The notes under the pieces: model-generated
What the model saw: only the letters and a program-made list of their open reading frames with translations
Told to the model about the DNA's origin: nothing
Databases searched by the model: none
Position numbers and translations under genes: made by a program
Part shown: piece after piece, positions 1,941 to 57,175 of the stretch
Numbering within the stretch: the stretch's first letter is position 1
Layout of the letters: each line of letters begins with the position of its first letter
From: an uncultured Gammaproteobacteria bacterium
GTDB taxonomy: Bacteria > Patescibacteriota > Microgenomatia > CAYXHB01 > CAZYTL01
DNA: 64,000 nucleotides
Direction: 5' to 3'
Assembly: GCA_964650355.1 (NCBI GenBank)
Contig: CAZYTL010000006.1
Location: forward strand, 11,019 to 75,018

Positions 1941-2123
1941 CAGAATCCCCAATGAAAGGAGGTTGGGGCCTTAGGCAACCCAGAAAGTCCGGGTTTGCCA
2001 GGTGGGATGGCTGCGACGACCCACCCTCCCCAAAGGGGAGCAGGATTTCTGCCTGAGGGCTGATGTCCGAGTCGCAATGGATCGCGAAGCAATAGTTTCC
2101 CCGATGAGGGGAAGGAGGAAATC

Positions 2124-3119: not shown

Positions 3120-3186
3120 TCACCGTTCGGGAGCCTGACGGCCGCCTCCCTGGCCGGATGTACCGGCCCGAGGGCTCCTGGACCCA

Positions 3187-3217
3187 GACAGGGGGGTACT
3201 TCTGGTGCCCCCCTGTC
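3187..3217 (+). terminator. GC-rich hairpin (GACAGGGGGG-N11-CCCCCCTGTC) downstream of the high-GC gene
   Basis: Perfect 10-bp stem read directly from the sequence, 68 nt after the stop at 3119. Confidence 0.5.
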
Positions 3218-3478
3218 AGTAAGCATCCTTTTCCTCCGATATGCTTCGGAGGACCTGACCAGGTATTTTCGCTTTCACCACTAGCGGTGAAATGGTTTGA
3301 AAATATCCCTCAGGTAGCGGTAGTAGGGGCTTACTTGAGAAATCAATACCGTTTCGAAGTTTCCCCCAAAGGGACCTCTTCGGGGACGTTTCAAGATAAT
3401 CTATTGATTTTTCAAGGGAGCCTAAGAAAGTAGTTTCAGGCTGTTTGTTTCAAGTTAATATAACTGACTCTTTAACGA

Positions 3479-3560
3479 TTTATTCACTGAGCGCAACGTA
3501 GTGAAGTCGAAGTGTTGATAGGGCTTCGACTACGCCAAGTCAAACTTGGCTTCGCTCAGC
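3479..3560 (+). repeat. structured repeat element copy 1 (TTATTCACTGAGCG...CGCTCAGCC, with internal GTCGAAG/CTTCGAC and CCAAGT/ACTTGG hairpins)
   Basis: Nested inverted repeats read directly from the sequence. It is tandem with copy 2 and lies upstream of the 3672 operon. Confidence 0.5.
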
Positions 3561-3579
3561 CAATAATTACTATTATCCA

Positions 3580-3652
3580 CTTATTCACTGAGTGAGCGTA
3601 GCGAATCGAAGTAAAGGCTTCGATTCAGCAAAGCTTCACTCAGCCGATATTA
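3580..3652 (+). repeat. structured repeat element copy 2 (TTATTCACTGAGTGAGCG...CTTCACTCAGCC)
   Basis: Shares the 5' TTATTCACTGAG motif and the hairpin architecture with copy 1. It ends 20 nt before the start codon at 3672. Confidence 0.5.
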
Positions 3653-3671
3653 ATTTCCAAATTCAAAATTC

Positions 3672-36129: not shown

Positions 36130-38070
36130 TCACTCCACCACTTCTCCTTCTTCCGCGCCTTTGGTGTCGGTATCTGAGGAACCGGGTTTAGTGTCGCCCT
36201 TGGGTGCTTTGTCTGAAGTTTTTGAAGCCTTGTCAGAGCTCTTCTGATCGCCGGCAGGAGGTGTTTGCTGTTGTTGCTGGTACATGGCCTGGCCGATCTT
36301 TTGCAAGGTGTCTGAGAGGTCTTTGGATTTGGCCTCGATGTCCTCCTTGGATTCTTTATCCAGAACTTCTTTGAGGGCTTTGACTTTGTCTTCGACTTCT
36401 TTTTTGGTGGCTTCTTCGACTTTGTCGCCGGCATCTTTGAGGGCTTTTTCAGCGGTGAAGATGAGGCCGTCAGCCATATTGCGGGCATCAATGACTTCCT
36501 TTTTCTTTTCGTCTTCGGCTTTGTGTTTGTCAGCCTCGGCTTTGGCTTTTTCAACTTCTTCGTCAGACATGCCCACGGCGCCGGTGATGGTGATTTTTTG
36601 TTCTTTGCCGGTGGCTTTGTCTTTGGCGGTGACGTTTAAGATACCGTTGGCGTCGATGTCAAAGGTGACTTCGATTTGAGGCACGCCGCGGGGAGCAGGG
36701 GGAATACCGTCCAGGCGGAAGGTGCCCAGGGATTTGTTGTCGGAAGCCATGGGGCGCTCGCCCTGAAGCACATGAACCTCGACCTGAGTTTGATTATCGG
36801 CAGCGGTGGAAAAGATCTGAGATTTGGAACTGGGGATGGTGGTATTGCGGTCAATCATGGGAGTGGCCACGCCGCCCAAGGTTTCGATGCTGAGGGTCAG
36901 GGGGGTGACGTCGAGGAGGAGGATGTCTTTGACGTCGCCGGCCAGGACGCCACCCTGGATAGCAGCGCCTACAGCCACGACTTCATCAGGGTTAACACCT
37001 TTGTGAGGTTCTTTGCCAAAGAAGTCTTTGACGACTTGCTGGACTTTAGGCATGCGGGTCATGCCGCCGACCAGGATAACTTCGTTGATGTCTTTAGCGT
37101 CGAGTTTGGCGTCTTTAAGAGCGTCTTTGACGGGTTTGATGGTTTTCTGGATCAGATCGTCAACCAGGGATTCAAGTTTGGCGCGGGTAAGTTTGAGGCT
37201 GAGATGAAGGGGATTACCGTCTTTGGACTGGGTGATGTAGGGTTGGTTGATTTCGGTTTCCTGAGCTGAGGAGAGTTCGATTTTGGCTTTTTCAGCAGCG
37301 TCGCGGATGCGCTGGAGGGCTTGTTTGTCTTTTTTAAGATCCAGGCCATTGTCTTTTTTGAATTCTTCAACGATCCAGTCCACGATGACTTCGTCAAAGT
37401 CGTCGCCGCCCAGGTGGGTGTCGCCGTTGGTGGATTTGACTTCGAAGACGCCGTCGCCGATTTCCAGGATGGAGATGTCAAAGGTGCCACCTCCAAGGTC
37501 GTAAACGGCGATTTTTTCATTGGTTTTTTTATCCAACCCGTAGGCCAGGGCAGCAGCAGTGGGTTCGTTGATGATGCGTTCGACTTTGAGGCCGGCGATT
37601 TCACCGGCTTGTTTGGTGGCCTGGCGCTGGGAATCGTCAAAGTAGGCGGGTACGGTGATGACAGCTTGTTCGACTTTTTCTCCCAGGAATTCTTCGGCGT
37701 GTTTTTTCATGTAGATAAGGACTTTGGCAGAGATTTCCTGAGGGGTGTATTCTTTGTCGCCAACTTTGATCATGGGGGAGCCGTCTTTGCCTTTGACGAT
37801 TTCGTAAGGAACCATTTCTTTGGTGCGCTGGACTTCGGGATCGTCATAGCGGCGGCCGATAAGGCGTTTGGCAGAATAGATGGTGTTTTTGGGGTTAAGC
37901 ACCATCTGGCGTTTGGCCACGTCGCCTACCAGGTTTTTAATGGGTTCGACCACTGAAGGGGTGGTATTTTTACCGGTGTCGTGCGCGGGGATGACTTTGG
38001 GCTGGCCACCCTGCATGATAGCCACGCAGGAGTTGGTAGTGCCGAGGTCAATGCCAATGATTTTTGCCAT
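36130..38070 (-). CDS. dnaK: molecular chaperone DnaK (Hsp70)
   Basis: [17 protein letters not shown]..., [19 protein letters not shown]. Full-length Hsp70. Confidence 0.97.
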
Positions 38071-38132: not shown

Positions 38133-38636
38133 TTAGTTATTACGAGGTAAACATGCCAACAAAGCGTCACTCTGGTTATTAATTAAAGTCAAAGTTGGAA
38201 CATCAGTTAAACCCTTTTTGGCCTCCCCTATTCTGCCATTTAAACCGGCAAGAAAGTTGGTTCGAATATTAGGGTCCTCTTGCTCTCTTAAAAATCCTGC
38301 AATTCCTGCAACAACCGCAATAAATTCATCGCCTCTAAAACCCTGCATGCCGGTAATTAAGGCAAATTCATTAGGTTCTTCCTCGGATCTAAGCATTTCA
38401 GTATATTGCATAATTAGTTCGGGAACGTGGGTACCTGAGGTACTTAATCGGACAATTTGTTCTGCTAGAAGTCGCCTCTGTCCTGGGTCAGGAAACGTCG
38501 CCCTTGTTTCTAATAACATTGCACTGGCGATTGAAGGATTAATTCCCTCTACAGTGGTTGTTAGAAATTTTTGAACGTGGTCATGACCTCCTACTGGGCC
38601 ATCAAATCTAGTTGAAGGTTGGAGTTGTTCTGACAT
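38133..38636 (-). CDS. hypothetical protein inserted between grpE and dnaK, with its own CIRCE-controlled promoter
   Basis: 167-aa ORF with no recognised family. Preceded by TTGACA-N17-TACATT overlapping a CIRCE-like palindrome. Confidence 0.5.
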   Translation of the reverse strand: MSEQLQPSTRFDGPVGGHDHVQKFLTTTVEGINPSIASAMLLETRATFPDPGQRRLLAEQIVRLSTSGTHVPELIMQYTEMLRSEEEPNEFALITGMQGFRGDEFIAVVAGIAGFLREQEDPNIRTNFLAGLNGRIGEAKKGLTDVPTLTLINNQSDALLACLPRNN

Positions 38637-43589: not shown

Positions 43590-44597
43590 ATGGCAAAGAA
43601 GTTGGTATTGGTGACTGGTTCCTCTGGATTTATTGGCACTAATTTAGTGGGTCGGTTGTTGAAGGAAGGAGATGCGGTGCTGGGGATGGATAATTTTTGC
43701 ACCTCGGAGAGATGGAAGGCGGATTTATATTCTGCAAAGCAGAACTATGAGTTTCTGGAGCAGGATATTGTTGAAGATGTTAAACCGGCGTTAAAGACGT
43801 CTAAATTGTTAAAGAAGTATAAAAAGATTGATGAGATTTACAATTTTGCCTGTCCGGCTTCGCCGCCGCGGTATATGAAGTTGCGGATTGAAACTCTGCG
43901 CGCCTGCACTGAAGGGTTAAGGCAGATGTTGGATTTGGCCCAGAAATATAAGGCGAAGATTTTGCAGGCATCGACTTCGGAAATTTACGGAGAGCCTTTG
44001 GAACACCCGCAAAAGGAAAGTTATTGGGGGAATGTGAATCCGATAGGGAACCGATCTTCTTATGACGAAAGCAAACGGTTAGGGGAAACCCTATGCTACG
44101 AATACCGGAGTTTACACGGGGTGGATACCAAGATTGTACGGATTTTTAATGCTTACGGGCCGTACATGGAGAAAGATGACGGGCGGGTGATCAGTAATTT
44201 TGTGATGCAAGCGTTGGAGGACAAGGATTTAACGATTAACGGTGACGGGCAGCAAACCAGATCGTTTCAATATATCGATGATTTAGTGGAGGGGTTGTTA
44301 AAACTGATGGCCACGGAAAAAGGATTTATGGGTCCGGTGAATATCGGCAATCCGGAAGAGTTTACGATTCTGGAGTTGGCCAAGTTGGTGAGGAAGATAA
44401 TGAAGTCAAAGAGTAAGCTGACTTATCTGCCCTTGGATGCCGGGGATCCCACGCGGAGAAAACCGGATATCAGTCTGGCCAAGAAGAAGTTGCATTGGCA
44501 ACCCCAGGTGAAGTTGGAGGAAGGGCTGGAAAAGACGGTTGAGTATTTTGAGAAGATATTGGAGAATAAGCAAGTTAAGATTAATAGAAGGAGGTGA
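43590..44597 (+). CDS. UDP-glucuronate decarboxylase (UDP-xylose synthase, SDR family)
   Basis: VLVTGSSGFIGTNLV, YDESKRLGETLCYEY and IFNAYGPYM...DGRVISNFV. The order of motifs fits UXS-type NAD-dependent decarboxylases. Confidence 0.8.
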   Translation: MAKKLVLVTGSSGFIGTNLVGRLLKEGDAVLGMDNFCTSERWKADLYSAKQNYEFLEQDIVEDVKPALKTSKLLKKYKKIDEIYNFACPASPPRYMKLRIETLRACTEGLRQMLDLAQKYKAKILQASTSEIYGEPLEHPQKESYWGNVNPIGNRSSYDESKRLGETLCYEYRSLHGVDTKIVRIFNAYGPYMEKDDGRVISNFVMQALEDKDLTINGDGQQTRSFQYIDDLVEGLLKLMATEKGFMGPVNIGNPEEFTILELAKLVRKIMKSKSKLTYLPLDAGDPTRRKPDISLAKKKLHWQPQVKLEEGLEKTVEYFEKILENKQVKINRRR

Positions 44598-44602
44598 TAA
44601 AT

Positions 44603-44800
44603 GTGTCAGAAACTACAGAAGGAATGACTTCCGGTTCCTTGGAAGGAAGCCAACCGGGCGCCCAAGATCGAGGACCGTTCGGATCGGTGAACCAAGAAAT
44701 GGGACAATTTCAACCAGGAAAATCTACAGAGACCGAAGATACTACCACGACAAGATCAACAGGTGCCGGGGGGAGGAAAGAGACTGGACAGACCGACTAA
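44603..44800 (+). CDS. candidate graspetide (omega-ester RiPP) precursor peptide
   Basis: Short ORF. GTG at 44603 lies 8 nt after AGGAGG (the alternative GTG at 44594 overlaps the UXS stop). The C-terminal core is rich in Thr/Ser and Asp/Glu (KSTETEDTTTTRSTGAGGRKETGQTD). It sits immediately upstream of an MdnC-like ATP-grasp ligase. Confidence 0.45.
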   Translation: MSETTEGMTSGSLEGSQPGAQDRGPFGSVNQEMGQFQPGKSTETEDTTTTRSTGAGGRKETGQTD

Positions 44801-44909
44801 CCGTTAAGAATAATCAAAGAGATAAAAACCTATTCGTTATTGAAGAGAGGGATAATTGTAGTGCGTCAGATAGACTTTTATGTTTATGTTAAGACAAAAG
44901 AGTTTTTGA

Positions 44910-45908
44910 ATGGGCAAGAGAAGCAGCAAGGTATTCATCGTCACCAATGAAGATGACCCTCACGTTGACTCGTTAACCCCTCAATTGCAAGCACTGGGTG
45001 CGGAAGTTTTTAGATTTGATACTGAATACTTCCCCACAAAGATAAAGATCAATTTGCAATATACGAGTGGAGACTTGAACGGGGTAATAGAGTGGCCTAC
45101 TGCGAGAGCTAACTTATTTGAGTTTACGAGTGTTTGGTATAGAAGGCCTGTTCGAGGAAAAATATCTAATGAGATTACTAACCCCATTTACAAAAAATTA
45201 GCTAATTCAGAGACAGAGCAATTCTTGTTGCAATTATGGAACGTGATGTTTGAAAAAGGAGTTTTTTTTGTCAGTCCTTGGCAATCCTTGGAAATTGGCG
45301 AAAGGAAACTAGGGCAATTGAAGGTGGCCTCAAAACTGGGAATGCGCACTCCTCAAACACTAGTCACTAACAATATTGATGAGGCAAAAGGATTTTGTAA
45401 ATTTTTAAATAATGATGTGGTGGTTAAGCACATTAGATCCACTTCTTTTATTGATAGCGGACGCAGGCGTCTTTGGTTGGCCACCAAGCATTTGTCTGCT
45501 CAACATTTAAAAAATGTTAGCTATATAAAATACGCCCCTTCCTTTTTGCAAGAGAATATTCACAAAAAATATGATATTAGAGTGACGGTGATTGGTAAAA
45601 AGGTATTTGCGGTTAAAATTGACAGCCAACAATATGAGGACACTAAAATCGATTGGAGGTTTGCAGAACACTCAGAAAGTTTAAAATATGAAGTGATTAA
45701 GTTGCCACAGAGGGTGACAAATTTTTGTTTACAACTAGTCGAGTATTATAAGCTGGCGTTTGGAGCCATTGATTTGGCATTATCTGAAAATGATGAGTAT
45801 GTATTTTTTGAAATAAACCCTAATGGACAATTTCTTTGGCTTGATGATAAAACTGATTTGCAATTGGGAAAAGAGATGGCAAAATTTCTAATACGTGGCA
45901 AAATGTAA
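44910..45908 (+). CDS. ATP-grasp RiPP macrocyclase (microviridin MdnC/MvdD family, graspetide maturase)
   Basis: VFRFDTEYFPTKIKINL, SVWYRRP, PSFLQENI...IRVTVIGKKVFAVKIDSQQYEDTKIDWR and FGAIDLAL...YVFFEINPNGQFLWL track MdnC-family motifs along the whole length. Confidence 0.7.
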   Translation: MGKRSSKVFIVTNEDDPHVDSLTPQLQALGAEVFRFDTEYFPTKIKINLQYTSGDLNGVIEWPTARANLFEFTSVWYRRPVRGKISNEITNPIYKKLANSETEQFLLQLWNVMFEKGVFFVSPWQSLEIGERKLGQLKVASKLGMRTPQTLVTNNIDEAKGFCKFLNNDVVVKHIRSTSFIDSGRRRLWLATKHLSAQHLKNVSYIKYAPSFLQENIHKKYDIRVTVIGKKVFAVKIDSQQYEDTKIDWRFAEHSESLKYEVIKLPQRVTNFCLQLVEYYKLAFGAIDLALSENDEYVFFEINPNGQFLWLDDKTDLQLGKEMAKFLIRGKM

Positions 45909-45910
45909 CT

Positions 45911-47002
45911 ATGTCTGAAAATAACCCATCTACTACTGCAGAGATGCGCTTGCAAATTCCTCTGAAAGGAAAACTGGCTAAGACGGCACAGGATGCTGAG
46001 TCGCCGATTCACTTTGTAGGCAAGAGGCTGGCAGAGAAAGTGGGGGCAAAATTCAGTTTCACAAGTGAAAAAGGAGGCGAAAAAATGAAAATGGGTTCTT
46101 TTTTTGCGGAAATGCTCGAATATGATGGAAAAGAGCAAGTGCCGGAGAGTGACGCCCCGCCGGAAGAATGGAACACCTTTATGAATACATACTTTCAGGA
46201 GTTGGCCGAAAATCCAGACACAGTTAGATTATTCCGCGCTGAAAGATATGGAGAGGGAAAAGTTCCCCGGTTATTGGAAATGCATTTGCCGCCGATGCCA
46301 AAAACTAAAGAGGGCTACCGAGATTTCCTGAGGTCCAGGCATCTATTGGCTGGATTACTAGCCGCGTATCAGCAGGAAATTGTGATGATGGTAGGAGTTA
46401 CCAGAATTATGGATGAATCTGTAATAAAACCTGACCATGAAAGAAGGTTGGGCTTTAATTTCAGTAAAATTGAATTAGACAAACTCGATACCAAACATAG
46501 ATTAGCACAACGAATGATAGCGAAATCACCTAACTTGCCACATAAAGATTTACCAATAAAGGGTATTTATATGCCGACGAAAGAATTTTTAGAAAGGGAT
46601 GAGGTGAGTCTGGCGACAGACGAAGAAGGCTGGTTTTTGCAAGCGGGTCCGGTGAAATTTAATTTTTATAAAGCAGGTGAACTAGACATGGAACGTTTAA
46701 GTGCTGATGAGCCGTCCGATAATGTGGACGAAATTGAGGTGGAAATGCCTGGAAATATTAATGAAATAAGTGCAAAAGATAGAGAAAGAGCAAAGTATGT
46801 ACTGGCTGGGTTTTTAAGAAATTTATTACTAGTAGGGACGGTTTCAATGGTCGTAGACGCTGAGAATCCTGACCAAATCCAATTGGCAAAGGATTTGGGG
46901 ATGAAGAGGGGACGGCGTGAAGGGGAAGGTAAAATCAGACTACAGACTACGAGGGCCCTTTTGGAAGAGGAGTGTTATGTACCAACGGGAGAATTCAAGT
47001 AA
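45911..47002 (+). CDS. hypothetical protein, third gene of the graspetide-like operon
   Basis: 363-aa ORF starting 3 nt after the ATP-grasp stop. No TM segment and no recognised family. Confidence 0.5.
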   Translation: MSENNPSTTAEMRLQIPLKGKLAKTAQDAESPIHFVGKRLAEKVGAKFSFTSEKGGEKMKMGSFFAEMLEYDGKEQVPESDAPPEEWNTFMNTYFQELAENPDTVRLFRAERYGEGKVPRLLEMHLPPMPKTKEGYRDFLRSRHLLAGLLAAYQQEIVMMVGVTRIMDESVIKPDHERRLGFNFSKIELDKLDTKHRLAQRMIAKSPNLPHKDLPIKGIYMPTKEFLERDEVSLATDEEGWFLQAGPVKFNFYKAGELDMERLSADEPSDNVDEIEVEMPGNINEISAKDRERAKYVLAGFLRNLLLVGTVSMVVDAENPDQIQLAKDLGMKRGRREGEGKIRLQTTRALLEEECYVPTGEFK

Positions 47003-47499
47003 TTAAAGTGGAGTGGTTTATTCGCGGGATAAAGGTGGGAATGGGTGTTAGGGAGAGAGTGAAGATAACTAAACCAGAAATAAGAAGCACACTTAATTTT
47101 TGTATATTTAACCCAAGTTCGCTTTCTAAGCGTACAGGGACTTTAGATTCTTTAACTTTAGGAGCTACTCCTAAGAGGGTTATCTCTTCTTTGTTTTTTC
47201 CCTTCCTTGCCACGCTCCTCCTGTCTTTTTTGATGTTGTTGATCGATTGTTCTCCTAGCTGCTCCTCTGGGTCGAAAGGGGTCAAATTGTCTATTAAATC
47301 CTGACATATCTTCACGCATTGACCATCACCTCCTTTCTAGTAATGATTATATTACGTGAGTTTGAGACTAATGGCAAATTGAGTCGAAAGAATGGGAGAA
47401 GAGAGTTGTTAAAGGAATATTCAGTTGGGTGATGGGAATGAGGTATTGAAGTGATTGACGAAGGATTCTATGTGGTGGATTGGGGCAGTTCTATTTGAC

Positions 47500-49488
47500 C
47501 TATACTGGGATGCCTGGAGGAGGTGGTGCGGTAACTGCTTTGATTCGTTCTAGTCGCTTTTTGTCTTTGAAGGCGGCGGTTAATGTCTGTCCTAATTCCT
47601 GAGCATCATGAGCAAGGGTTGATTTCTCGGTTACTTTTCCAGCAGCGGTTTCTGTCGTAGGAACAATTTTTTCGACAGCTTTTTCAGCCAGACCTGGTTC
47701 GGGCGCGTTTAATTTTTGGAGCGTATTATCTACAATTCGATAGCCGATAAGAGCTGGTTGTTGTGCTTGGCGTAAACCATCGTTAACCCGTTCATCAACA
47801 TCGTGGGTGCCTCTAAGTAAGGCAACTACTGACATGACTGCGATACTTTCGGCTTCAAGCTGCGTTGCTCCAGCATGTTCAGATGCGGCACTAAGGAGAT
47901 GGATAATTTCTAGCCCGTGATGGCTTTGCATCCAAGAAGCCCAATGATCGTAAGCGAGACCGTTCGCAAAACGGATGGCTTCATTGATATCGGGATGCTC
48001 GCTAATTCTTCCCGGAATAACTTGCCTTTTCTTGCCTCCTTCTGGCTGATAATCTGGTGCAGCGGCAGCCAGTTCTCTTACAGAATCGCCAACTTGATCA
48101 AGAGCGTCGCTTCCTAATTTATCACTGTTGTCATTAACGACTCTGACTTCCACAGATGCAGCATAAAGAGAAAGTGCTCTTTTGGCCACTTCTTGGGCAT
48201 GATTCCTAGCTTCAGGTGATTTTATACCTTCAGGCCCGAGTAACTTTTCAACGTTGGCAGGATCGGCCAGAAATTCTGCGGCTTTTACGGATGAGAAACC
48301 TTCAGTGTCGGGTTCCTTTTTACTTTCTAAACCGTCTTCGAGAGCTCCGGCTAGATAAGCGATGGCTGTCATTTGATCTTTTAATTGTTGTTGTTCTGCG
48401 AGCTTTTCTCCATTTCGTTTGTCGTTTTCATCCAATTTAGTGGGGCGCATCATGACTTCGGTTTCTCTCTGGGTGAACCATTCCTTTAACACTCCTTGAC
48501 TTCTCTCAAATCTTGCTCCGGTAAGCGGGACAACCTTGATAGCTTCTTGGGATAATAGGCGCATGCGTTTGAGTTCCGCCTGGTCGGCTCCTATTCTTCC
48601 TTGTCTATCGGCTAAATCTATTAAAGGGACATTGTCGGCTGTATCCGGATCCTTATCAATATAGGTAGCCATTCTAACTCGTTCTGCAGGCAGTTCATGC
48701 ACCGGATCGAGTTTAGCCTCAGAGAGAGGAGAATTTTCACCACTGAGAAAGATGCGATAGAATGCCATCCTGGTCGTATCTACCGTTCTGGCTACTTGAT
48801 CAGAATCTTTTATTTTGATTTCTTTCAGGCCTTGGCGACAATCAGCGACAAGCTTGGCTTCTTTACTAGCAATTGTGCCTTCAACAATGGTCTTCCAGCG
48901 ATTATTGAGCTCGGCTCTCGCAATACCAGATTCAGGAGAGAGGGTGTAGGTGGCCACAAATTCGTTGACAGCTTGGCTGTTATCAACAGCATTAGCTACA
49001 GTACCTTCAAGTTCACCTGCGCGTTCTTTCTGAAGGATAGCTATCACGTCCTCTTCGGCGGCGCGATAAGCTTGACGGTAGGCTTCAATCTTACCTTGAT
49101 ACCCCTCAAGTTGATGCGCGAGCTGGCCGTACCGTTTTTCCCCATTTAGTTCTACGAGTCTTTGATCCTTTTCTTGCCTAAGTTGTTGTTCATAACGTGC
49201 TTGTGCCTCTTGAGGATCTGCAGGCTCAGCGAGGGTGGCCCGATTAGCACCATTCAGCTGGTCGAGGATACGTAAATTGCGAAGAGCGGTTTCTGCTCCA
49301 AGTTTAAATATGTCAACTTCATGTGGTTGCGTAAGGGCGTCAAAGGCAGCGCCGGCTGCTGTTTCTAATTGTGGACTGGTAGCCTCAGGCTGAGGTGCAA
49401 GTCTGGTTATTTTGAATTCCTCTGTTGTTTCTGTGGGTGTTTCGGACATCTTGAGTGTGAGTATGGCTGAAAAGGGGAATTGTGTCAA
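47500..49488 (-). CDS. large hypothetical protein (662 aa)
   Basis: Long ORF (start possibly at the internal MSETPTE). Helical, with no recognised motif. Co-oriented with 49510-50124. Confidence 0.5.
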   Translation of the reverse strand: MTQFPFSAILTLKMSETPTETTEEFKITRLAPQPEATSPQLETAAGAAFDALTQPHEVDIFKLGAETALRNLRILDQLNGANRATLAEPADPQEAQARYEQQLRQEKDQRLVELNGEKRYGQLAHQLEGYQGKIEAYRQAYRAAEEDVIAILQKERAGELEGTVANAVDNSQAVNEFVATYTLSPESGIARAELNNRWKTIVEGTIASKEAKLVADCRQGLKEIKIKDSDQVARTVDTTRMAFYRIFLSGENSPLSEAKLDPVHELPAERVRMATYIDKDPDTADNVPLIDLADRQGRIGADQAELKRMRLLSQEAIKVVPLTGARFERSQGVLKEWFTQRETEVMMRPTKLDENDKRNGEKLAEQQQLKDQMTAIAYLAGALEDGLESKKEPDTEGFSSVKAAEFLADPANVEKLLGPEGIKSPEARNHAQEVAKRALSLYAASVEVRVVNDNSDKLGSDALDQVGDSVRELAAAAPDYQPEGGKKRQVIPGRISEHPDINEAIRFANGLAYDHWASWMQSHHGLEIIHLLSAASEHAGATQLEAESIAVMSVVALLRGTHDVDERVNDGLRQAQQPALIGYRIVDNTLQKLNAPEPGLAEKAVEKIVPTTETAAGKVTEKSTLAHDAQELGQTLTAAFKDKKRLERIKAVTAPPPPGIPV

Positions 49489-49509
49489 GCGCCAGCGTGT
49501 CTGATTTAT

Positions 49510-50124
49510 TTAAATCCGGTAATCCATGATAGGCACCAAGGTTCTTTCAACTGGGGAAATAGCCAACCTACCTTCGCTCAATTCGGCGAGAATTTGGGCG
49601 GCATGCAAGACAGCAATGTGGGGTTTTGCCTGATAAGTACAAACGACATCATCAGTCAACCTTTGTTCAGGAGTTCTAGAGTCAAAAGATGGACCTAGAA
49701 ATATATCGACTTTTGGTGATGGCCCAAAATTAAGCCCCTCAAGCTGAAGTCGAGACTGGCTTTCTCTGAGAGCCGTTGTTAATTCTTCATCTGAGACTTT
49801 TTGTTCGTTATTGCGTGCTGTATCTGCTTGGCGAAGAAAGTGCATCATATAATTTCCCATAGTAAGTCTGTATCCTGTCAGAATTAATTGTCTTGCCTGA
49901 TCAGGCGATAAACCGTCTATAGGTAAGTTTCTTTCTAGCTCTCTATGCCTAATGGCACGAGCTTCAGACAAGAATTGATGATCTGTTTCTGAAGAATGAG
50001 TGAATGGGGAGATGTCTGGACACCCAACTCTATCACCGATAAAAGCTCTTACTACCTTTCTGTTCTGATCAATCCAGTAAGAATAAGGTTGAGATCTATT
50101 TTCTCTTGACTTGTTGTTCAACAT
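49510..50124 (-). CDS. hypothetical protein (204 aa)
   Basis: ORF lying 21 nt upstream of the 662-aa gene. No recognised family. Confidence 0.45.
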   Translation of the reverse strand: MLNNKSRENRSQPYSYWIDQNRKVVRAFIGDRVGCPDISPFTHSSETDHQFLSEARAIRHRELERNLPIDGLSPDQARQLILTGYRLTMGNYMMHFLRQADTARNNEQKVSDEELTTALRESQSRLQLEGLNFGPSPKVDIFLGPSFDSRTPEQRLTDDVVCTYQAKPHIAVLHAAQILAELSEGRLAISPVERTLVPIMDYRI

Positions 50125-50499
50125 AGTTGTTTGTTTTTGTTTACGACCTATAGTCTACATTATGGAAGAAGATTTGTCAACTTTTAATTTGTTTCAGATT
50201 TAGATTTGATGTTTTAAGGAAAAATTAATAGTTGACAGGGGAGAAGAAATACAGCATATTAGGGAATTGAAAAGACTTCTTCTGCCCGATGCTTCTTTTC
50301 ACAAGTTTGTACCGATGACACTGATCGGGATCAGCGCAGACGGTATCAATTTTTGTTTATACATAATTAAGGTAATTTACTTCACTGGCCGCAATCGGAG
50401 GTGATTGTCTGGAATTAGGAATTATGAATTAGGGGATAGTTGTTGATTGATTCATGATTCTTGATTCATAATTTCATAATTCTTTTTTCGACTTTTATG

Positions 50500-51921
50500 A
50501 ATTCGAGATTCAGACTCATCAGCAGCGTGCTAGTGATCGGGGTAATCATCGCAGCAGTTTTGGGCGCAAGCAGCGCCTTTTTTAGTGACAAAGAAACGAG
50601 TCCTGACAACACGCTGGTGGCCGGAGCAGTGGATTTGAAGATTGATAACACGAGTTATTACAACGGAGAACCTTCTCCGGACACGAGTTGGACTTTGAAT
50701 GATTTGACGGATCAGTTGTTTTTTAATTTCTTGGACGTGAAGCCAGGGGACAGGGGAGAGGACACGATTTCTTTGCATGTGGATGACAATGACGCCTGGG
50801 CGTGCATGAATGTGGAGTTGACCAAGGATGATGACGCGACTTGTACTGAACCGGAACAAATAGATGATCCCACGTGTGATGAACCGGATGAGCCGGAAGA
50901 TTTGTGGGACGGAGAACTGGGAGGGTTGATTAATTTTATTTTCTGGGGTGATGACGGAGACAATGTGTTGGAGCAAGACGAAACTGATTTGGTATTTAAG
51001 GAAGGCACGGCGTCAGCGGTGCTGGCCAATGGGGTATGGAAGCTGGCTGATTCAACAGGCAATATCTGGGATGAGTTTCAGCATCCTCTGCAGGGAGGCA
51101 AGGATTATTACATTGGCAAGGCCTGGTGTTTGGGCCAGCTGACTGAAGCGCCTCTGGAGCAAGACGGCAAAGGGGCGGATAGCGACAGAACACCCGCGAA
51201 TTCCACAGGCGGAGTGCTTTGTGACGGGTCAGGATTGAACAACGCGGCGCAGTCTGATATTTTGATGGCCAATATCGGGTTTTCTGCGATTCAGTCCAGG
51301 CACAACCCGGACTTTACCTGCGGGGAAAACGGGGGAGAGCCGTGCTTTAAGAAGGCTGATTTGATGTTGGTATTGGATCGGTCAGGCAGCATCAATGATA
51401 CAGAATTGGCAACGTTGAAGACGGCGGCCAAAGCGTTTGTGGATGCGCTGGCATTGTCTGCTAATGGCCCGCATGCCGGGGAGGTGAGTTTTGCGACCAC
51501 GGCCAATCTGGACCAGCACTTGACTGATAATCCGGCATCAGTGAAGGCGGTGATTGACGCTCTGGTGCACAACGGGTTTACTGATTTGAAAGACGCGCTT
51601 GATCTGGCTACCGGAGAGCTGGCCAATCCGGGAGACTTACATGACAGACCTGACCTTGAATCACCTGATTATATTATTTTGATTACTGATGGGAATCCGA
51701 ACCGGCCAGACCCGAACACAGCAGTGGCTGAGGGAAGTGCGGCGGCGACCGCGGCTAAGAATGCAGGGATCACGATTTATGTGGTAGGAGTGGGAAGTGA
51801 TGTGGACACGGCTTATTTGCGGGATGATATTGCCACCGACCCGGCGCACTATTTCGCAGCAAATGATTTTGGAGATTTGTCAACGATCCTGGCAACGATA
51901 GCCCAGTGCCCGAATGAATAG
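50500..51921 (+). CDS. TasA/camelysin-like protein with SipW-cognate signal peptide and C-terminal vWA domain
   Basis: The N-terminus (MNSRFRLISSVLVIGVIIAAVLGASSAFFSDKETSPDNTLVAGAVDLKIDN) matches the SipW-cognate signal class. The C-terminal MIDAS motif (VLDRSGSINDTE...ILITDGNPN...IYVVGVGSD) indicates a vWA domain. The start at 50500 is chosen over 50461 by comparison with the two paralogs. Confidence 0.7.
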   Translation, partial: NSRFRLISSVLVIGVIIAAVLGASSAFFSDKETSPDNTLVAGAVDLKIDNTSYYNGEPSPDTSWTLNDLTDQLFFNFLDVKPGDRGEDTISLHVDDNDAWACMNVELTKDDDATCTEPEQIDDPTCDEPDEPEDLWDGELGGLINFIFWGDDGDNVLEQDETDLVFKEGTASAVLANGVWKLADSTGNIWDEFQHPLQGGKDYYIGKAWCLGQLTEAPLEQDGKGADSDRTPANSTGGVLCDGSGLNNAAQSDILMANIGFSAIQSRHNPDFTCGENGGEPCFKKADLMLVLDRSGSINDTELATLKTAAKAFVDALALSANGPHAGEVSFATTANLDQHLTDNPASVKAVIDALVHNGFTDLKDALDLATGELANPGDLHDRPDLESPDYIILITDGNPNRPDPNTAVAEGSAAATAAKNAGITIYVVGVGSDVDTAYLRDDIATDPAHYFAANDFGDLSTILATIAQCPNE

Positions 51922-51932
51922 AGAATCGTTGT

Positions 51933-51960
51933 GCGTTTCGACGTTTCACGTTTCAACGTT
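51933..51960. repeat. GAAACG/CGTTTC-heptamer repeat block flanking the four-helix-bundle gene (left)
   Basis: gcgtttcgacgtttcacgtttcaacgtt. A direct copy is at 52350-52379 and an inverted copy at 52390-52431. Confidence 0.5.
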
Positions 51961-51987
51961 GGTGGTTTTTGTGTTTAAAAGTTATTT

Positions 51988-52305
51988 ATGTCTAGTTCGT
52001 ATCAAGAATTGGATGTGTGGAAGCTTGGTGTAGAACTAGCAGTGTTGGTATATAGAGTAACCAGTCAATTTCCTCAACATGAATTGTACGGCCTCACCAG
52101 TCAAATGCGCAGAGCCTCGGTAGCCGTGGCTTCGAACATTGCGGAAGGTCAAGGCCGGGGATCGAGGAAGGAATTTCGACAATTTTTAAGGATTGCATTT
52201 GGTTCGCTTTTAGAATTAGAAACTCAAGTCGTAATAGCTGAAAGAATTGGATATTTAAATCAAGCTGAGAAGGATAAAATTTTGGAGATGAGCTTGAGGG
52301 TTTAG
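51988..52305 (+). CDS. four-helix-bundle protein (23S rRNA intervening-sequence protein/Avd-like family)
   Basis: ELDVWKLGVELAVLVYRVTSQFPQHELYGLTSQMRRASVAVASNIAEG...EFRQFLRIAFGSLLELETQVVIAER is the family signature. Confidence 0.75.
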   Translation: MSSSYQELDVWKLGVELAVLVYRVTSQFPQHELYGLTSQMRRASVAVASNIAEGQGRGSRKEFRQFLRIAFGSLLELETQVVIAERIGYLNQAEKDKILEMSLRV

Positions 52306-52348
52306 CAAATGATTTTTAAGTTAGAAAAATCTTTAATAAAGTAAAGTA

Positions 52349-52433
52349 AGCGTTGCACGTTTCTCGTTTTTCGTTTCGGCATTCGATCGCGAAACTTAAC
52401 GATGAAACGTTGAAACGAGAAACGCGAAACGTT
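52349..52433. repeat. right-hand direct + inverted GAAACG-type repeat block after the four-helix-bundle gene
   Basis: gcgttgcacgtttctcgtttttcgtttcgg followed by cgaaacttaacgatgaaacgttgaaacgagaaacgcgaaacg. Together they form a long imperfect hairpin. Confidence 0.5.
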
Positions 52434-52454
52434 TTAGAGAGGAGGTGAGAAAAA

Positions 52455-53327
52455 ATGCAAAAGAGAATTTTATTCAGTTTGATGATTATCGGCATTGTCG
52501 GAGCAGTAGTGTTCGGAGCCACCAGAGCGTTTTTCAGCGACACAGAAACGTCATATGATAATACTTTTGTGGCCGGAGATATTGACTTGCAAATTGACAA
52601 TGAAAGTTACGCCATTGACTACAACATCCCCCAGTATGACGGGACGCCGGTCGGCGCGTTGGTATTGAGCGGACTTACCTCATGGCCGATGGGGGATCTA
52701 GATCTTGAGAAGTTTTTCGACTTTAGAGACCTGAAGCCAGGGGACTACGGCGAAGATACCATTTCCGTGCACGTGGGCAGCAATAATGCCTGGTTGTGCG
52801 CCGCAGCGCAAATCACTGATGATTCAGACCAGACCTGTACAGAACCAGAGTTAGAGGATGATGCCAATTGTGCTGAACCCGGAGAAGGATTGGGCGAACT
52901 TGATGAAGGAGTCAATTTCGCTTTCTGGGTTGATGATGGGGACAACGTGCTTGAATCAGACGAAAAAGGATCGATCTTCCTTAACGGTCCGCTAAGCGGA
53001 TTAAGCGAAGCCGGGCAGATCGCACTGGCTGATTCAGAGCACAGCATCCTAGGCGGTAATGAACCTATTCCCGGAGGAACGACCTTTTATATCGGGAAAG
53101 CCTGGTGCTTTGGAAACCTAACCCCAGATCCAGTTGAACAAGGCGAAGGTGGTCCACTAGATCGGGAAACAACCGGATTTAACTGCGATGGTTCCCAAGT
53201 GAAAAATGCGGCCCAGACCGATCAGGTGGTGGGCGATTTGCAGTTCTACGCAGAACAGTCCCGCAACAATGGTCAATTCCTGTGCAGCAATTGGACGCCA
53301 AACTGGGAGCGGCCAGAAGAACCTTAG
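52455..53327 (+). CDS. TasA/camelysin-like protein with SipW-cognate signal peptide
   Basis: MQKRILFSLMIIGIVGAVVFGATRAFFSDTETSYDNTFVAGDIDLQIDN, and blocks shared with its paralogs (KPGDYGEDTISVHV, TCTEPE, YYIGKAWCFG). A GGAGG SD is present. Confidence 0.7.
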   Translation: MQKRILFSLMIIGIVGAVVFGATRAFFSDTETSYDNTFVAGDIDLQIDNESYAIDYNIPQYDGTPVGALVLSGLTSWPMGDLDLEKFFDFRDLKPGDYGEDTISVHVGSNNAWLCAAAQITDDSDQTCTEPELEDDANCAEPGEGLGELDEGVNFAFWVDDGDNVLESDEKGSIFLNGPLSGLSEAGQIALADSEHSILGGNEPIPGGTTFYIGKAWCFGNLTPDPVEQGEGGPLDRETTGFNCDGSQVKNAAQTDQVVGDLQFYAEQSRNNGQFLCSNWTPNWERPEEP

Positions 53328-53450
53328 GACTAACCTAGAACCTGAGTGTCTACCGAGCTCTCCTGTCCGATCTGAAGATCAGAGCCGGAGATTCGGTGGG
53401 CAGTCAGAGGTGCGAAGTGTAAGGCTTCGCGCTTGTGACTGCCCCTCCAA
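53322..53450 (+). repeat. repeat family B copy (CCTTAG.AACCT...CCGAGCTCTCCTGTCC...GCCGGAGATTCGGTGGGCA)
   Basis: Read directly from the sequence. A second copy is at 55430-55545. Confidence 0.4.
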
Positions 53451-53503
53451 AATGTTTCCAGGTTTTTATTAGCTGTTATCTGCTCGGAAGGAGGTGTATG
53501 TAA

Positions 53504-54889
53504 ATGAAAAAGGTGCTTTATAGTATAATGTTGATCGGGATTGTAGGAACTGTAGTTTACGCAGCCACCAATGCCTTTTTCAGCGATACGGAAACTTCGG
53601 TCGGGAATACGTTCGAAGCCGGAGCCATTGATTTGCAGATTGATAATGAGAGCTGGTATAACGGTGAGCCGCGCGAGGATTTATCCTGGGATTTAAGAGA
53701 TTTGACGATTGAAAAGTTCTTTGATTACGCGGATTTGAAACCCGGAGATTGGGGCGAAGATACAGTGAGTCTGCACGTGACCAGCAACCCGGCTTACGCG
53801 TGTGTAGCTTTCCGGATTACGGAAAACAGTGACAACGGGATTACTGAGCCTGAAGACGAAGTTGACGGCAATATTGACCAGGCTGACGGCACGGCTGACG
53901 GTGATCTGGCCCAAGAACTGCATTTCGCTTTCTGGGTAGATGACGGAGACAACGTGCTGGAAGACAATGAGGTTGAATCGCTGGTGGGAGGCCAGGCGGC
54001 TGATGTGTTTGAACAAGGCATATATGCTTTGGCTGATTCCCAGGGCGGGTTGTTTGAAGAAGCGTTGCAGCCGGAAACCGATTATTACATTGGCAAGGCC
54101 TGGTGTTACGGAGACATGAGTCCGGAGCCGGTACCAGCCGGACAAAGCGAGGATCCAAGTGTGGCATCAGGAATTACCTGTAACGGGCAGCCGGTGAGTA
54201 ATATTTCCCAGACAGACAAGTTGGTGGGGGATATTCAGTTCTACGCGGTGCAGACCAGGCACAATGAAGAGTTCCTGTGTAGCAGGGATTATGAACCTAC
54301 ATGGCCAAGACAAATCACGTCAACTACTGGTGACGGCTGGGCAAGCGTGGGTGGAGATTTCACCGAAGCTTGGCAAGCCGACGGTCGCTGGGGTGACGGA
54401 GGGACTTCCAATGCAGAAAATGAAGTTCGTGTTGGACTGGCTGGCGGTGGAAGCCCACAAGCTCAACACCAGAGCGATAACTCTACCGGCCCTTGGAGAA
54501 ATGGGGTAACTGAAAGCTTTACTCTCACCTATGACGGTGGGACTGAAGCAGCCTTGACTATCGGTGATACCACGGCAGATACCACAGTTGACTTACCTTT
54601 GGGTGATGTTCCCGGTGCTAACGGAAAAATCGGGATTACAGTCAAGACTTACGTGGATGATACCGAAGTTAAAGTTGAAAACGTAAAACTTGACGGGATG
54701 TCTCCAGTAGGTCCTGACAGCGTTAGCGAATCAGTCAATGGATCAAAAGAATACCTGGTCATCAGTGGCCTGACAGAGTTGTCTGACGGGTTCACTTTGA
54801 CAGGTGATTTGACATTCACTTGGGGCGGAACAACGCCTTCCTCAGCAGAGGATATGTCCATGCTCATCCAAGTGGAAAATGCGCCTTAG
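53504..54889 (+). CDS. TasA/camelysin-like protein with SipW-cognate signal peptide and extra C-terminal domain
   Basis: MKKVLYSIMLIGIVGTVVYAATNAFFSDTETSVGNTFEAGAIDLQIDN and shared paralog blocks. About 170 aa of additional C-terminal sequence. Confidence 0.7.
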   Translation: MKKVLYSIMLIGIVGTVVYAATNAFFSDTETSVGNTFEAGAIDLQIDNESWYNGEPREDLSWDLRDLTIEKFFDYADLKPGDWGEDTVSLHVTSNPAYACVAFRITENSDNGITEPEDEVDGNIDQADGTADGDLAQELHFAFWVDDGDNVLEDNEVESLVGGQAADVFEQGIYALADSQGGLFEEALQPETDYYIGKAWCYGDMSPEPVPAGQSEDPSVASGITCNGQPVSNISQTDKLVGDIQFYAVQTRHNEEFLCSRDYEPTWPRQITSTTGDGWASVGGDFTEAWQADGRWGDGGTSNAENEVRVGLAGGGSPQAQHQSDNSTGPWRNGVTESFTLTYDGGTEAALTIGDTTADTTVDLPLGDVPGANGKIGITVKTYVDDTEVKVENVKLDGMSPVGPDSVSESVNGSKEYLVISGLTELSDGFTLTGDLTFTWGGTTPSSAEDMSMLIQVENAP

Positions 54890-54923
54890 TTTTGAGACTA
54901 AGTCTGCCCAATTTAACTTGGAG

Positions 54924-54986
54924 GTTGCCAAGTCTTTGGAGGCTTGGCAATCTGCCGCAGTCCCGAAGGGAATCGGGGTTGCGGCA
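54924..54986 (+). terminator. two consecutive hairpins (TTGCCAAG-N10-CTTGGCAA; CTGCCGCA-N20-TGCGGCAG) after the third TasA-like gene
   Basis: Perfect 8-bp stems read directly from the sequence, 35 nt after the stop. Confidence 0.4.
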
Positions 54987-54994
54987 GGTTAGTT

Positions 54995-55037
54995 AGAGAT
55001 CCTTCGATCCACCAAATGGCGGACTCAGGATGACATG
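54995..55037. repeat. repeat family A, degenerate copy (GAGATCCTTCGATCC...GGACTCAGGATGACATG)
   Basis: Read directly from the sequence. Confidence 0.4.
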
Positions 55038-55182
55038 AATTAATATTAAATTGAGGAATGTCAATTTCCGCAAATTTACCGCGGAATTACCGCAGCCTAG
55101 TGGGTGGGCTGTCAAAGCCTTGATTGAACGTAGGTCTTGTCATTCTGGAACAAGCCAGGTGCCAGAAGATACCTGGCGCAGT

Positions 55183-55245
55183 GATAGAATCTCGGAGATC
55201 CTATCGGCCCGATAAGAATCGGACCTCCAGGATGACGGAAGGCGT
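55183..55245. repeat. repeat family A copy with internal expansion (GATAGAATC..GGAGATCCTATCGGCCCGATAAGAATCGGACCTCCAGGATGACGGAAGGCGTCAT)
   Basis: Read directly from the sequence. Contains ATGACG/CGTCAT and ATCGG/CCGAT inverted repeats. Confidence 0.5.
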
Positions 55246-55327
55246 CATGTTAATCAGGGTTTTGACAGCTTAACTACATGATAAATGTGATTTGGAGTTG
55301 TGTACTTTGAGGCTAATTTAGCCTTAA

Positions 55328-55362
55328 GGGGATCCTATCGCTACGCTCCAGGATGACGGGGG
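55328..55362. repeat. repeat family A copy (GGGGATCCTATCGCTACGCTCCAGGATGACGGGGGG)
   Basis: Read directly from the sequence. Confidence 0.5.
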
Positions 55363-55429
55363 GAGTAAGTCCTGCTGTTAGTTTAAGCTGGCGACAAGTT
55401 CCTGGACAAAAGTGAAGGGACTTGCAAAA

Positions 55430-55545
55430 ACCTTAGAACCTATCATGGTGAACCGATGCTAAATTCGGTTCTCATGGTTGATCTGCCGAGCTCTCCTGTC
55501 CTGTAAAAAGAGTTTGGTGCCGGAGATTCGGCGGGCAACCACAGT
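55430..55545 (+). repeat. repeat family B copy
   Basis: CCTTAGAACCT...CTGCCGAGCTCTCCTGTCC...GTGCCGGAGATTCGGCGGGCA. Confidence 0.4.
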
Positions 55546-55649
55546 TCTGCAAACCTGTCTGCATGCCGGGTAAAATAGGAGTTGAAGGATTGTGGCAGCC
55601 GAAGTAAAACCTTACTGAGCAATAAAAGGTTATAATTAAGGGGAAACTT

Positions 55650-56000
55650 ATGGCTGTTCTGTTAACGGGAGAGATCCTTGACGAGATAAGGACCAAGGGG
55701 GAGGAGATGGAAATGGGGTATTATTTCCGTCTTGGTCCGGACATTTATATCAGAATCACTAATCCGGAAGAAGAGATCCCGGAAGCAGGTAGAGGTGGCA
55801 TAGAGGAGCGGGTTGATGACTCAGGCACTTACGAAGTACTGAATGACCCGACGATGATGCAATTTATCAGCGATTTTCATGATCCTAGCCGGATTAAAGA
55901 GACCCGAGGTTATTTGCTACCTATTTTAGTGCCAAGAGGATTTATGTTATTAACTGCTCAACGGGATTTTTTCCGTAGAATTCCCGAGGAATTTCAGTAG
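55650..56000 (+). CDS. hypothetical protein
   Basis: 116-aa ORF with a weak SD and no recognised family. Confidence 0.35.
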   Translation: MAVLLTGEILDEIRTKGEEMEMGYYFRLGPDIYIRITNPEEEIPEAGRGGIEERVDDSGTYEVLNDPTMMQFISDFHDPSRIKETRGYLLPILVPRGFMLLTAQRDFFRRIPEEFQ

Positions 56001-56049
56001 CCGTATCACGTAATACGTAGCACGTAACAATATATTAATTCCTGATTCA

Positions 56050-57165
56050 TTGTTAAATACTATGCAGTCTTTACATTACTTATTCAGAATTTTTCAATTA
56101 TTAGTGACTATTTTGGTGGTGGTGTTCGCCGGGGTGCTGATTCTGACGGCTTTGCCGGTGAAAGGGAATATTAAATTGTTAACGGTGCTGTCCGGTTCAA
56201 TGGGGCCCACGATTCCGGTGGGCAGCGCGGTGTTGATCAAGCCGGTTGATCATTACCTAACCAATGAGGTGATTACTTATGCCCGCGGGGGCAATGAAAA
56301 GCAGCTGGTAACGCACAGGATTGTGGCTACGCAGTTTGTGAACGGGGAAAAGCAGTATATTACTAAAGGAGACGCCAACGAGGATCCGGATCCGGCCGTG
56401 GTAAAAGCTGATCAGGTGAAGGGGCAGGTGTTGCTGACGGTGCCGTATCTGGGATATGTGGCGAATTGGATCAAGACGCCGGCCGGGTTTGTGAGTCTGA
56501 TTGTGTTGCCGGCGGCGATTTTGATTTACGGAGAGTTGATGGCAGTGAAAAATGAGATGGTGAGAGCATGGAAGAAAAGGCATTTGGGAGTGCTGGCGTT
56601 GTTAGTGGTGATAGCGGCCGGATGGCAGTTAAACAGTAATACTCAGGCGATGCTGGAAGACAGGGAAGTGAGCGAGATGAATACGATCCAGGCGTGGGTA
56701 GAAGGTACGGCCGTGGAAGTTCAGACGGACGGAACGCAGGAAACAACCCCGACAGGTGAGCCGTCTCCAACGCCTCCTGAAGGAGCCAATTTGGTGATTA
56801 ATGAGTTGTTAGCCAATCCTCAAACAGATTTTACTTATGAATGGGTGGAAATTTATAATCCCACCGGAGCGGATGTGGATCTGACTGACTGGGCGTTGAA
56901 GGATGCGGCAAATCCTGCAAAAAGTTTATCCGGATTAGGGACAATTTCGGCCGGAGGATTTAAGGTTTATAGCGACCATAATTGGTTAAATAATAGTGGG
57001 AGTGAAACTTTGCAATTAATGTTTCCGGGTACCAATGTAGTAGACGAGGTCACATACACTGGCACGTCAGCTGACGTGTCGCATGGTAGGGAAACTGACG
57101 GAGGGCTGCCGTGGAAAGACTGCGGCACGGCAACTCAAGGCAGTTCGAATAATGGCAGCTGCTAA
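56050..57165 (+). CDS. SipW-type (archaeal-type) signal peptidase I fused to a C-terminal lamin-tail domain
   Basis: N-terminal TM segment, then LSGSMGPTIPVGSAVLIKP...VTHRIV...ITKGDANEDPDPAVV (catalytic Ser/His region of SipW-like SPases). The C-terminus (LVINELLANPQTDFTYEWVEIYNPTGADVDLTDWAL) is an LTD signature. Confidence 0.75.
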   Translation: MLNTMQSLHYLFRIFQLLVTILVVVFAGVLILTALPVKGNIKLLTVLSGSMGPTIPVGSAVLIKPVDHYLTNEVITYARGGNEKQLVTHRIVATQFVNGEKQYITKGDANEDPDPAVVKADQVKGQVLLTVPYLGYVANWIKTPAGFVSLIVLPAAILIYGELMAVKNEMVRAWKKRHLGVLALLVVIAAGWQLNSNTQAMLEDREVSEMNTIQAWVEGTAVEVQTDGTQETTPTGEPSPTPPEGANLVINELLANPQTDFTYEWVEIYNPTGADVDLTDWALKDAANPAKSLSGLGTISAGGFKVYSDHNWLNNSGSETLQLMFPGTNVVDEVTYTGTSADVSHGRETDGGLPWKDCGTATQGSSNNGSC

Positions 57166-57175
57166 ATGAATCAGG

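Follow-up and report, generated by a model that had tools for sequence, protein, structure and literature searches.

A candidate minimal graspetide cassette on a lineage-specific insert in a Woesebacteria-like genome of the candidate phyla radiation

Graspetides are protease-inhibiting macrocyclic peptides. A biosynthetic locus for such a peptide, made by the ribosome and modified after translation (RiPP), had been proposed, from the letters and open reading frames (ORFs) alone, for a stretch of 64,000 nucleotides of contig CAZYTL010000006.1 (assembly GCA_964650355.1; hereafter the window), and this original prediction comprised a precursor gene, an MdnC-like ATP-grasp ligase gene and a third gene. 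All of the ORFs that it named are present in the ORF map of the window (Table 1). The small ORF, the ligase gene and the orphan gene behind it follow a UXS-like dehydrogenase gene and span about 2.4 kb, with 110 nt separating the stop of the small ORF from the start of the ligase gene. Together they probably form a minimal graspetide cassette, in which an intact macrocyclase would act on the peptide encoded upstream of it, and they lie on an insert that is missing from a syntenic relative.

Table 1. Features of the locus and of its surroundings, in positions of the window (aa, amino acids).
Feature	Position	Strand	Remarks
UXS-like short-chain dehydrogenase	43590-44597	+	Epimerase/GDP_Man_Dehyd, E ~1e-48; TGA stop at 44595-97
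Small ORF, candidate graspetide precursor	44603-44800 (65 aa, GTG 44603); 44594-44800 (68 aa, GTG 44594)	+	
Shine-Dalgarno-like AGGAGGTG before the small ORF	44589-44596	+	Overlaps the final UXS codons and the stop
ATP-grasp ligase, MvdD/MdnC/CdnC type, 332 aa	44910-45908	+	Pfam, NCBIfam, PDB and fold search
Orphan 363-aa protein	45911-47002	+	Starts 2 nt behind the stop of the ligase gene
Lineage-specific insert, ~5.8 kb	44570-50370		Graspetide cassette and opposite-strand orphans
Possible 106-aa gene	46995-47315	-	AGGAGGTG upstream at 47327-47334; codon usage +15 bits
Orphan, 662 aa	47500-49488	-	On the insert
Orphan, 204 aa	49510-50124	-	On the insert

The sequence blocks by which the ligase had been recognized (FRFDTEYFP, SVWYRR, FLQENI, DWR and EINPNGQFLWL) are all read in its translation. 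Among the NCBIfam families it matches MvdD (TIGR04184) with an E value of 1e-67 and 228.7 bits, at a curated cut-off of 475, followed by GRASP_SAV_5884 (TIGR04187; 6e-63, 212.8 bits, cut-off 350), MvdC (TIGR04185; 4e-56, 190.6 bits, cut-off 425) and grasp-with-spasm (TIGR04192; 6e-36, 124.4 bits, cut-off 230), and the cut-off of 143.4 for RimK (TIGR00768; 4.8e-14, 52.4 bits) is not reached either. As none of these scores comes up to its curated equivalog cut-off, the protein is a member of the superfamily without falling into any of the named subfamilies. The MvdD pre-ATP-grasp domain (PF21068) is found with 64.2 bits, above the Pfam threshold of 27, and a sequence search of the PDB returned graspetide ligases only (CdnC, MdnC, AMdnB, MdnB, PruB and PsnB). 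An AlphaFold2 (AF2) model computed from a 21-sequence alignment reached a predicted local distance difference test score (pLDDT) of 93 and a predicted template modelling score (pTM) of 0.90; in a Foldseek search of the PDB with this model, ranks 1-32 are occupied by graspetide-ligase chains, with template modelling (TM) scores of 0.84 for CdnC and 0.83 for MdnC, while RimK and LysX structures appear only from rank 33 onward with TM ~0.65. All 29 invariant columns of the 21-sequence family alignment are kept in the ligase, including the E-x-N of EINPNGQ. Sequence families, invariant residues and fold match thus establish the 332-aa protein as an intact MvdD/MdnC/CdnC-type ATP-grasp macrocyclase. 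The original prediction had named a better score with a non-RiPP ATP-grasp family as the result that would speak against its ligase call; the family and fold scores instead favour the graspetide-type ligase over the RimK and D-Ala ligase reading, RimK being far weaker. A second ligase paralog was not found within the 64-kb window, and in a quick neighbour-joining tree the ligase stands on its own long branch, outside any clade of the candidate phyla radiation (CPR).

The small ORF directly ahead of the ligase gene can be read from two GTG codons. GTG 44603 sits 8 nt past a GGAGG (44590-94) within AGGAGGTG and is the better start, the longer reading from GTG 44594 overlapping the UXS stop codon. 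The octamer occurs in 8 copies in the window compared with 2.6 expected, and stands in the same form ahead of the genes at 52455 and 53504; any Shine-Dalgarno-like site at all is present at 7 of the 45 long ORFs. Over the window as a whole, most long ORFs lack a Shine-Dalgarno-like site, and a few carry a perfect AGGAGGTG. With a codon-usage log-likelihood of +15 bits (0.23 per codon), the small ORF equals the median of 65-codon windows taken from real genes, and the other five frames score negative; a value as high is reached by 2 of 107 shadow ORFs. An alternative 117-aa ORF (44539-44892) was rejected for its negative codon-usage score.

The peptide consists of a hydrophilic leader with the sequence PFGSVNQE, followed by a core ending in ...KSTETEDTTTTRSTGAGGRKETGQTD, the Thr- and acid-rich tail on which the original prediction had rested and which is indeed present in the translation; the core is also unlike that of microviridin, as had been stated, and lacks TxKYPSDWEEY. 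In order to place the composition of this tail, the last 25 residues were scored in the 661 stop-to-stop ORFs, each 40 aa or longer, from the six frames of the window. At least eight Thr/Ser together with at least four Asp/Glu are found in the small ORF alone (11 Thr/Ser and 5 Asp/Glu), and the pattern TxxxTx(6-10)[DE]x(1-4)[DE] in two ORFs, one of which is the small ORF. The Thr/Ser and Asp/Glu tail is more than chance. Neither Pfam nor NCBIfam, including their precursor families, holds a match to the peptide.

With matches named Candidatus Woesebacteria and Patescibacteria, the DnaK encoded here shares 77-78% identity, which supports the earlier assignment of the DNA to a small-genome bacterium. 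A syntenic relative in a Joint Genome Institute (JGI) metagenome (L085; DnaK 81%, HrcA 81% and UXS 71% identical) is collinear with the window over HrcA, a flippase and UXS, and then continues directly with genes for M73-like secreted proteins, so that the small ORF, the ligase, the 363-aa gene and the 662-aa and 204-aa orphans are all missing. Because the whole segment from 44570 to 50370 is absent from this relative, the cassette is a lineage-specific insert. According to the alignment with L085 the left DNA junction lies near 44570, within the final UXS codons, so that the insert supplies both the UXS stop and the ribosome-binding site of the small ORF; on the right, the junction lies near 50370, where homology returns with the conserved sequence CTTCACTGxCCGCAAxCGGAGGTG ahead of the next gene. 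Since L085 has UXS without the small ORF, the latter is part of the insert and stands outside the UXS operon. UXS was rejected as a member of the cluster: the ligase is absent from 80 of 80 other UXS loci, and the UXS of L085 is without the cassette. Repeats, a tRNA or an integrase were not found at the insert flanks, the window contains no Rfam RNA and no paralogs of the insert proteins, and a promoter and terminator scan was not informative.

Homologous ligase loci in other genomes provide a background for the arrangement. An adjacent same-strand ORF with the Thr/Ser and Asp/Glu composition is present in 29 of 81 such loci, compared with 0.54% of the ORFs elsewhere in them. The five nearest ligase homologs that could be placed on contigs (P0002/L088, P0004/L001, P0005/L089, P0007/L002 and P0013/L090) are all preceded by an ORF that resembles a precursor gene and whose product has a Thr-rich and then acidic C-terminus (TETQTVTKIAREGNDTD, TATVTITRIGREEDDHDD and TGTTVRDITQKDD, to be compared with TETEDTTTTRSTGAGGRKETGQTD in the window), and share with the window the order of precursor or precursors, ligase and a third gene that overlaps the ligase gene or follows it within a few nt. 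There are also differences: the ligases are only 34-39% identical to that of the window, the third genes are unrelated to the 363-aa orphan, and the leaders carry PF[GA][LM]x[FY]xE, in many cases together with G[RQE]Y[DN]xxxQxW, of which the window peptide matches only P-F-G...E and G-Q-F. The third genes differ in family among the five loci themselves, encoding a membrane protein, a DUF6624 protein or a HEAT-like protein, and since the gene is coupled in each of them but variable in family, a third position that is tightly linked to the ligase yet changes in content characterizes this neighbourhood. A DUF6624 gene stands beside the ligase in L003 and L089; this family is presumably the same as cluster 23 of the graspetide loci in CPR bacteria.

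Two further observations concern the precursors of these homologous loci. The second leader element, G[RQE]Y[DN]xxxQxW, lies ~10 residues past PF[GA][LM]x[FY]xE in the precursors of L088, L089, L037, L065, L012 and L021, and is common to precursors of unrelated taxa, including one on a Heimdallarchaeota contig. The position of the precursor varies as well among the CPR homolog loci: instead of lying upstream, the best candidate is encoded just downstream of the ligase in L003/L004, L017, L058, L064 and L065, and on the opposite strand in L021 (5506-5709). Examples of such candidates are MKKQPFGVQFAETPEMVSSADCGDSTQFITGKDWDFDSD and, in Woesebacteria Ch104a, ...TTCQRITKVGDKHWTTDTYVDD.

The third gene of the window has gene-like codon usage (+84 bits). 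A word-index search over 5.8 billion clustered proteins found only the 363-aa protein itself, and a full HMMER search over 1.84 billion representatives added a single match (P0123), which was discarded as a translated tandem repeat. Pfam (E<=0.1), NCBIfam, PHROGs, PADLOC, the PDB sequences and viral contigs gave no match, and as judged by these searches the protein is a true orphan. A signal peptide is absent, at most one borderline hydrophobic segment can be discerned, and the single-sequence AF2 model (pLDDT 35) is unusable. The original prediction had suggested a tailoring or export component; with no family and no clear membrane segments, no link to either function was found, and the protein is most plausibly a locus-specific accessory that may serve as partner, in export or in immunity. 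An internal ATG at 46085 follows a strong AAGGAGG by 7 nt (46066-46087) and may give a 305-aa product beginning MKMGSFFAEMLEY, while the 58 codons ahead of it carry an in-frame coding signal of +10 bits with negative scores in the other frames. The 106-aa candidate gene on the opposite strand, which is unannotated, falls in the 500 nt that separate the 363-aa gene from the 662-aa gene. It shares 8 nt with the end of the 363-aa ORF and encodes a hydrophobic C-terminal segment; it has no Pfam match.

We consider it probable, at roughly 0.6, that the locus is a minimal graspetide (omega-ester/amide RiPP) cassette on the 5.8-kb insert of a Woesebacteria-like CPR genome, with the upstream 65-aa peptide as the precursor on which the ligase acts. 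The peptide would be translated from GTG 44603 with its strong AGGAGGTG site, and the pre-ATP-grasp domain of the ligase would bind the N-terminal leader of ~40 residues. With ATP, the ligase would then phosphorylate carboxylates of the core (E43, E45, D46, E60 and D65 in the 65-aa numbering), and hydroxyls of Thr/Ser (T42-T53, T61 and T64) or the amines of K40 and K59 would attack to form macrolactone or macrolactam rings. One ring layout that would fit the CPR signature TxxxTx(6-10)[DE]x(1-4)D runs over T49, T53, E60 and D65. Removal of the leader and export of the product would be carried out by proteins encoded elsewhere.

Several observations weigh against this assignment. The cassette contains no protease or transporter gene. 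The ligase has no ortholog, its best non-self match among the 5.8 billion clustered proteins being 39% identical, and the composition criteria for the tail were set after the peptide had been seen. In the leader, PFGSVNQE is without the hydrophobic positions of the usual PF[GA][LM]x[FY]xE or Phhx(1,2)h leader helix, the loose pattern Phhx(1,2)h being matched by PFGSV only when Gly is counted as hydrophobic, and a matrix built from 15 related PF[GA][LM]x[FY]xE leaders gives it -6.5 bits, which ranks it no higher than among the top 4% of positions in the window. A profile hidden Markov model of 14 precursors adjacent to homologous ligases gave E=2.5 for the peptide, at rank 6 of 1059 ORFs, so that neither the matrix nor the profile reached significance. 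Metagenome contigs hold no relatives of it, and a collection of 15 billion proteins does not contain the 68-aa form, the only form looked up there. Thus, position, coding signal and composition speak for the small ORF as the precursor gene that the original prediction had seen in it, while homology to the precursors of the nearest loci was not detected. Precursors of CPR bacteria have features in common, but their sequences are not similar from one cluster to another (Makarova et al., 2022; PMC8939145), and for this reason a peptide without homologs is expected rather than damning.

The likeliest alternative accepts the ligase as real but assigns it another substrate, encoded by a gene located elsewhere or by an unrecognized ORF, and the small ORF would be a chance reading frame or an unrelated gene. 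We regard this as possible, at clearly lower odds than the assignment of the upstream peptide. The weak leader motif and the undetected homology to neighbouring-locus precursors are in line with it, as are the many CPR branch-2 loci for which precursors were not found (Makarova et al., 2022; PMC8939145) and the several CPR homolog loci whose candidate follows the ligase gene or is encoded on the opposite strand. However, directly ahead of the ligase gene the small ORF unites gene-like codons with a strong ribosome-binding site and with a composition that is unique, it came with the insert, and no other ORF of the 64 kb has a comparable C-terminus.

Doubtful, but next in order, is a stronger version of the graspetide assignment, according to which the locus would represent a new topological group. 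The hydrophilic leader would then be read by a new mode of recognition, the 363-aa orphan would possibly be an obligatory partner or a tailoring protein, and the product might serve in dealings with the host or with competitors. Many graspetide groups have been described with co-occurring proteins that belong to no family, together with the first partner-dependent ligases (Carter et al., 2026; PMC13097080).

It is improbable that the cassette is a nonfunctional remnant of a horizontal acquisition, in which the ligase has stayed intact by chance and the peptide and the orphan are decaying. Its location on a lineage-specific insert, the long orphan branch of the ligase and the degenerate leader motif could be explained in this way, but every family-invariant residue of the ligase is kept in a confidently modelled fold, and the ORFs are all uninterrupted, with gene-like codon usage that matches the host.

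Somewhat less probable still is that the 363-aa protein, or its 305-aa form from ATG 46085, is itself the substrate, with a leader-like N-terminal MKMGSFFAEMLEY and the C-terminal QTTRALLEEE, which has the TTxxxxEE spacing of the plesiocin core. The strong Shine-Dalgarno-like site ahead of this ATG would fit such a role, and candidate precursors in CPR homolog loci are often encoded just downstream of the ligase and start with M..PF[GA]xxFAE. Moreover, the report 'Peptide and Protein Cyclization by a Promiscuous Graspetide Synthetase' (PMC12291112) suggests that protein substrates are possible. On the other hand, a precursor of ~300 aa with a single core would be atypical, and both substrate-like motifs were spotted post hoc. 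The low probability follows from two results, namely that the leader matrix ranks SFFAEMLEY no higher than among the top 2.4% of positions, a value without significance, and that the 58 codons upstream of the ATG look coding.

Finally, a non-RiPP ligase of the RimK, LysX or glutathione-synthetase type, acting on a protein C-terminus or a metabolite, is suggested by weak secondary matches (PF08443 at 1.4e-06, the RimK family TIGR00768, and PHROG 2599 'S6 glutaminyl transferase') but is disfavoured, and it is scarcely credible given graspetide families that score ~50 orders of magnitude better than RimK-type families, a family-specific pre-ATP-grasp domain over the Pfam threshold, and 32 graspetide-ligase chains that outrank every RimK/LysX chain.

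With the upstream peptide as the probable substrate, the locus can be set beside the graspetide systems described so far. In microviridin and chryseoviridin biosynthesis (MdnA-E; CdnC) the expected chemistry is the same, namely ATP-dependent side-chain esters or amides, and CdnC and MdnC are the best sequence and fold matches to the window ligase. By contrast, the window has one ligase instead of two, the locus lacks the PFFARFL leader as well as the microviridin core and encodes neither a GNAT acetyltransferase nor an ABC transporter, and its ligase remains far under the MvdD and MvdC cut-offs (229 vs 475 and 191 vs 425 bits). Closer parallels come from CPR bacteria themselves, in which graspetide loci with two ATP-grasp branches, cluster-specific precursors and the core signature TxxxTx(6-10)Dx(1-4)D have been published (Makarova et al., 2022; PMC8939145), and from a RODEO survey that distinguishes 43 groups, of which groups 27 and 42 are rich in candidate phyla (Carter et al., 2026; PMC13097080). 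The window agrees with branches 1 and 2 of the former and with these two groups of the latter in its CPR host, its single ligase, its small, cluster-unique precursor and an accessory gene without a known family, and the core residues T49, T53, E60 and D65 fit the published signature, provided that its first acidic residue may also be Glu. It differs in that a cluster-23/DUF6624-type protein, a peptidase, a SPASM protein and a methyltransferase are missing from the locus, that the leader has no clear Phhx(1,2)h motif, and that the ligase falls outside the CPR clades of the quick tree, the comparison with the published branches being made by description only.

Some features of the surrounding DNA lie apart from the cassette. 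Pfam, NCBIfam, PHROG and PADLOC gave nothing for the 662-aa and 204-aa orphans; the larger of the two starts ...MSETPTETTEEF, which resembles the (M)SETTEG of the small peptide. Beyond the insert a run of secreted-protein genes extends from 50461 to 58324, with paralogous camelysin (M73)-like N-termini at 50461, 52455 and 53504; the 50461 gene also encodes a vWA domain, and a lamin-tail-domain protein and an RTX-repeat protein come after 53504. This run is shorter in L085. In the relative, GrpE and DnaK are also separated by a gene of the bAvd / 23S-rRNA-IVP type (L085 9342-9731); at this place in the window the gap between GrpE (38133-38636) and DnaK (36130-38070) measures only ~60 nt. Near the left end of the window, positions 2001-4000 have 58% G+C, compared with ~45% for the window, and contain long overlapping ORFs on both strands (2124-3119 on the plus and 2315-3226 on the minus strand), with no Pfam match for the plus-strand ORF and no Rfam match. 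The GC skew is positive in all 2-kb bins of the window, regardless of the strand of the genes.

What graspetides do in episymbiotic CPR bacteria with small genomes is a question that has been posed before (Makarova et al., 2022; PMC8939145). The view in the original prediction that such loci are unexpected in reduced genomes does not hold, because CPR graspetide loci have already been published (PMC8939145, PMC13097080) and because CPR lineages, including a complete Woesebacteria genome, account for 11 of the best 80 genome hits for the ligase. The locus is a further example of the known CPR graspetide loci and leaves the knowledge of the family unchanged. Particular to it are the divergent ligase (at most 39% identity), the precursor, which has no relatives and whose leader is unusually hydrophilic, the orphan partner gene and the recent insert. 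As the cassette is carried on a recently acquired insert, such cassettes therefore move between CPR lineages, and the locus adds one more compact, three-gene test case for the role of graspetides in these bacteria.

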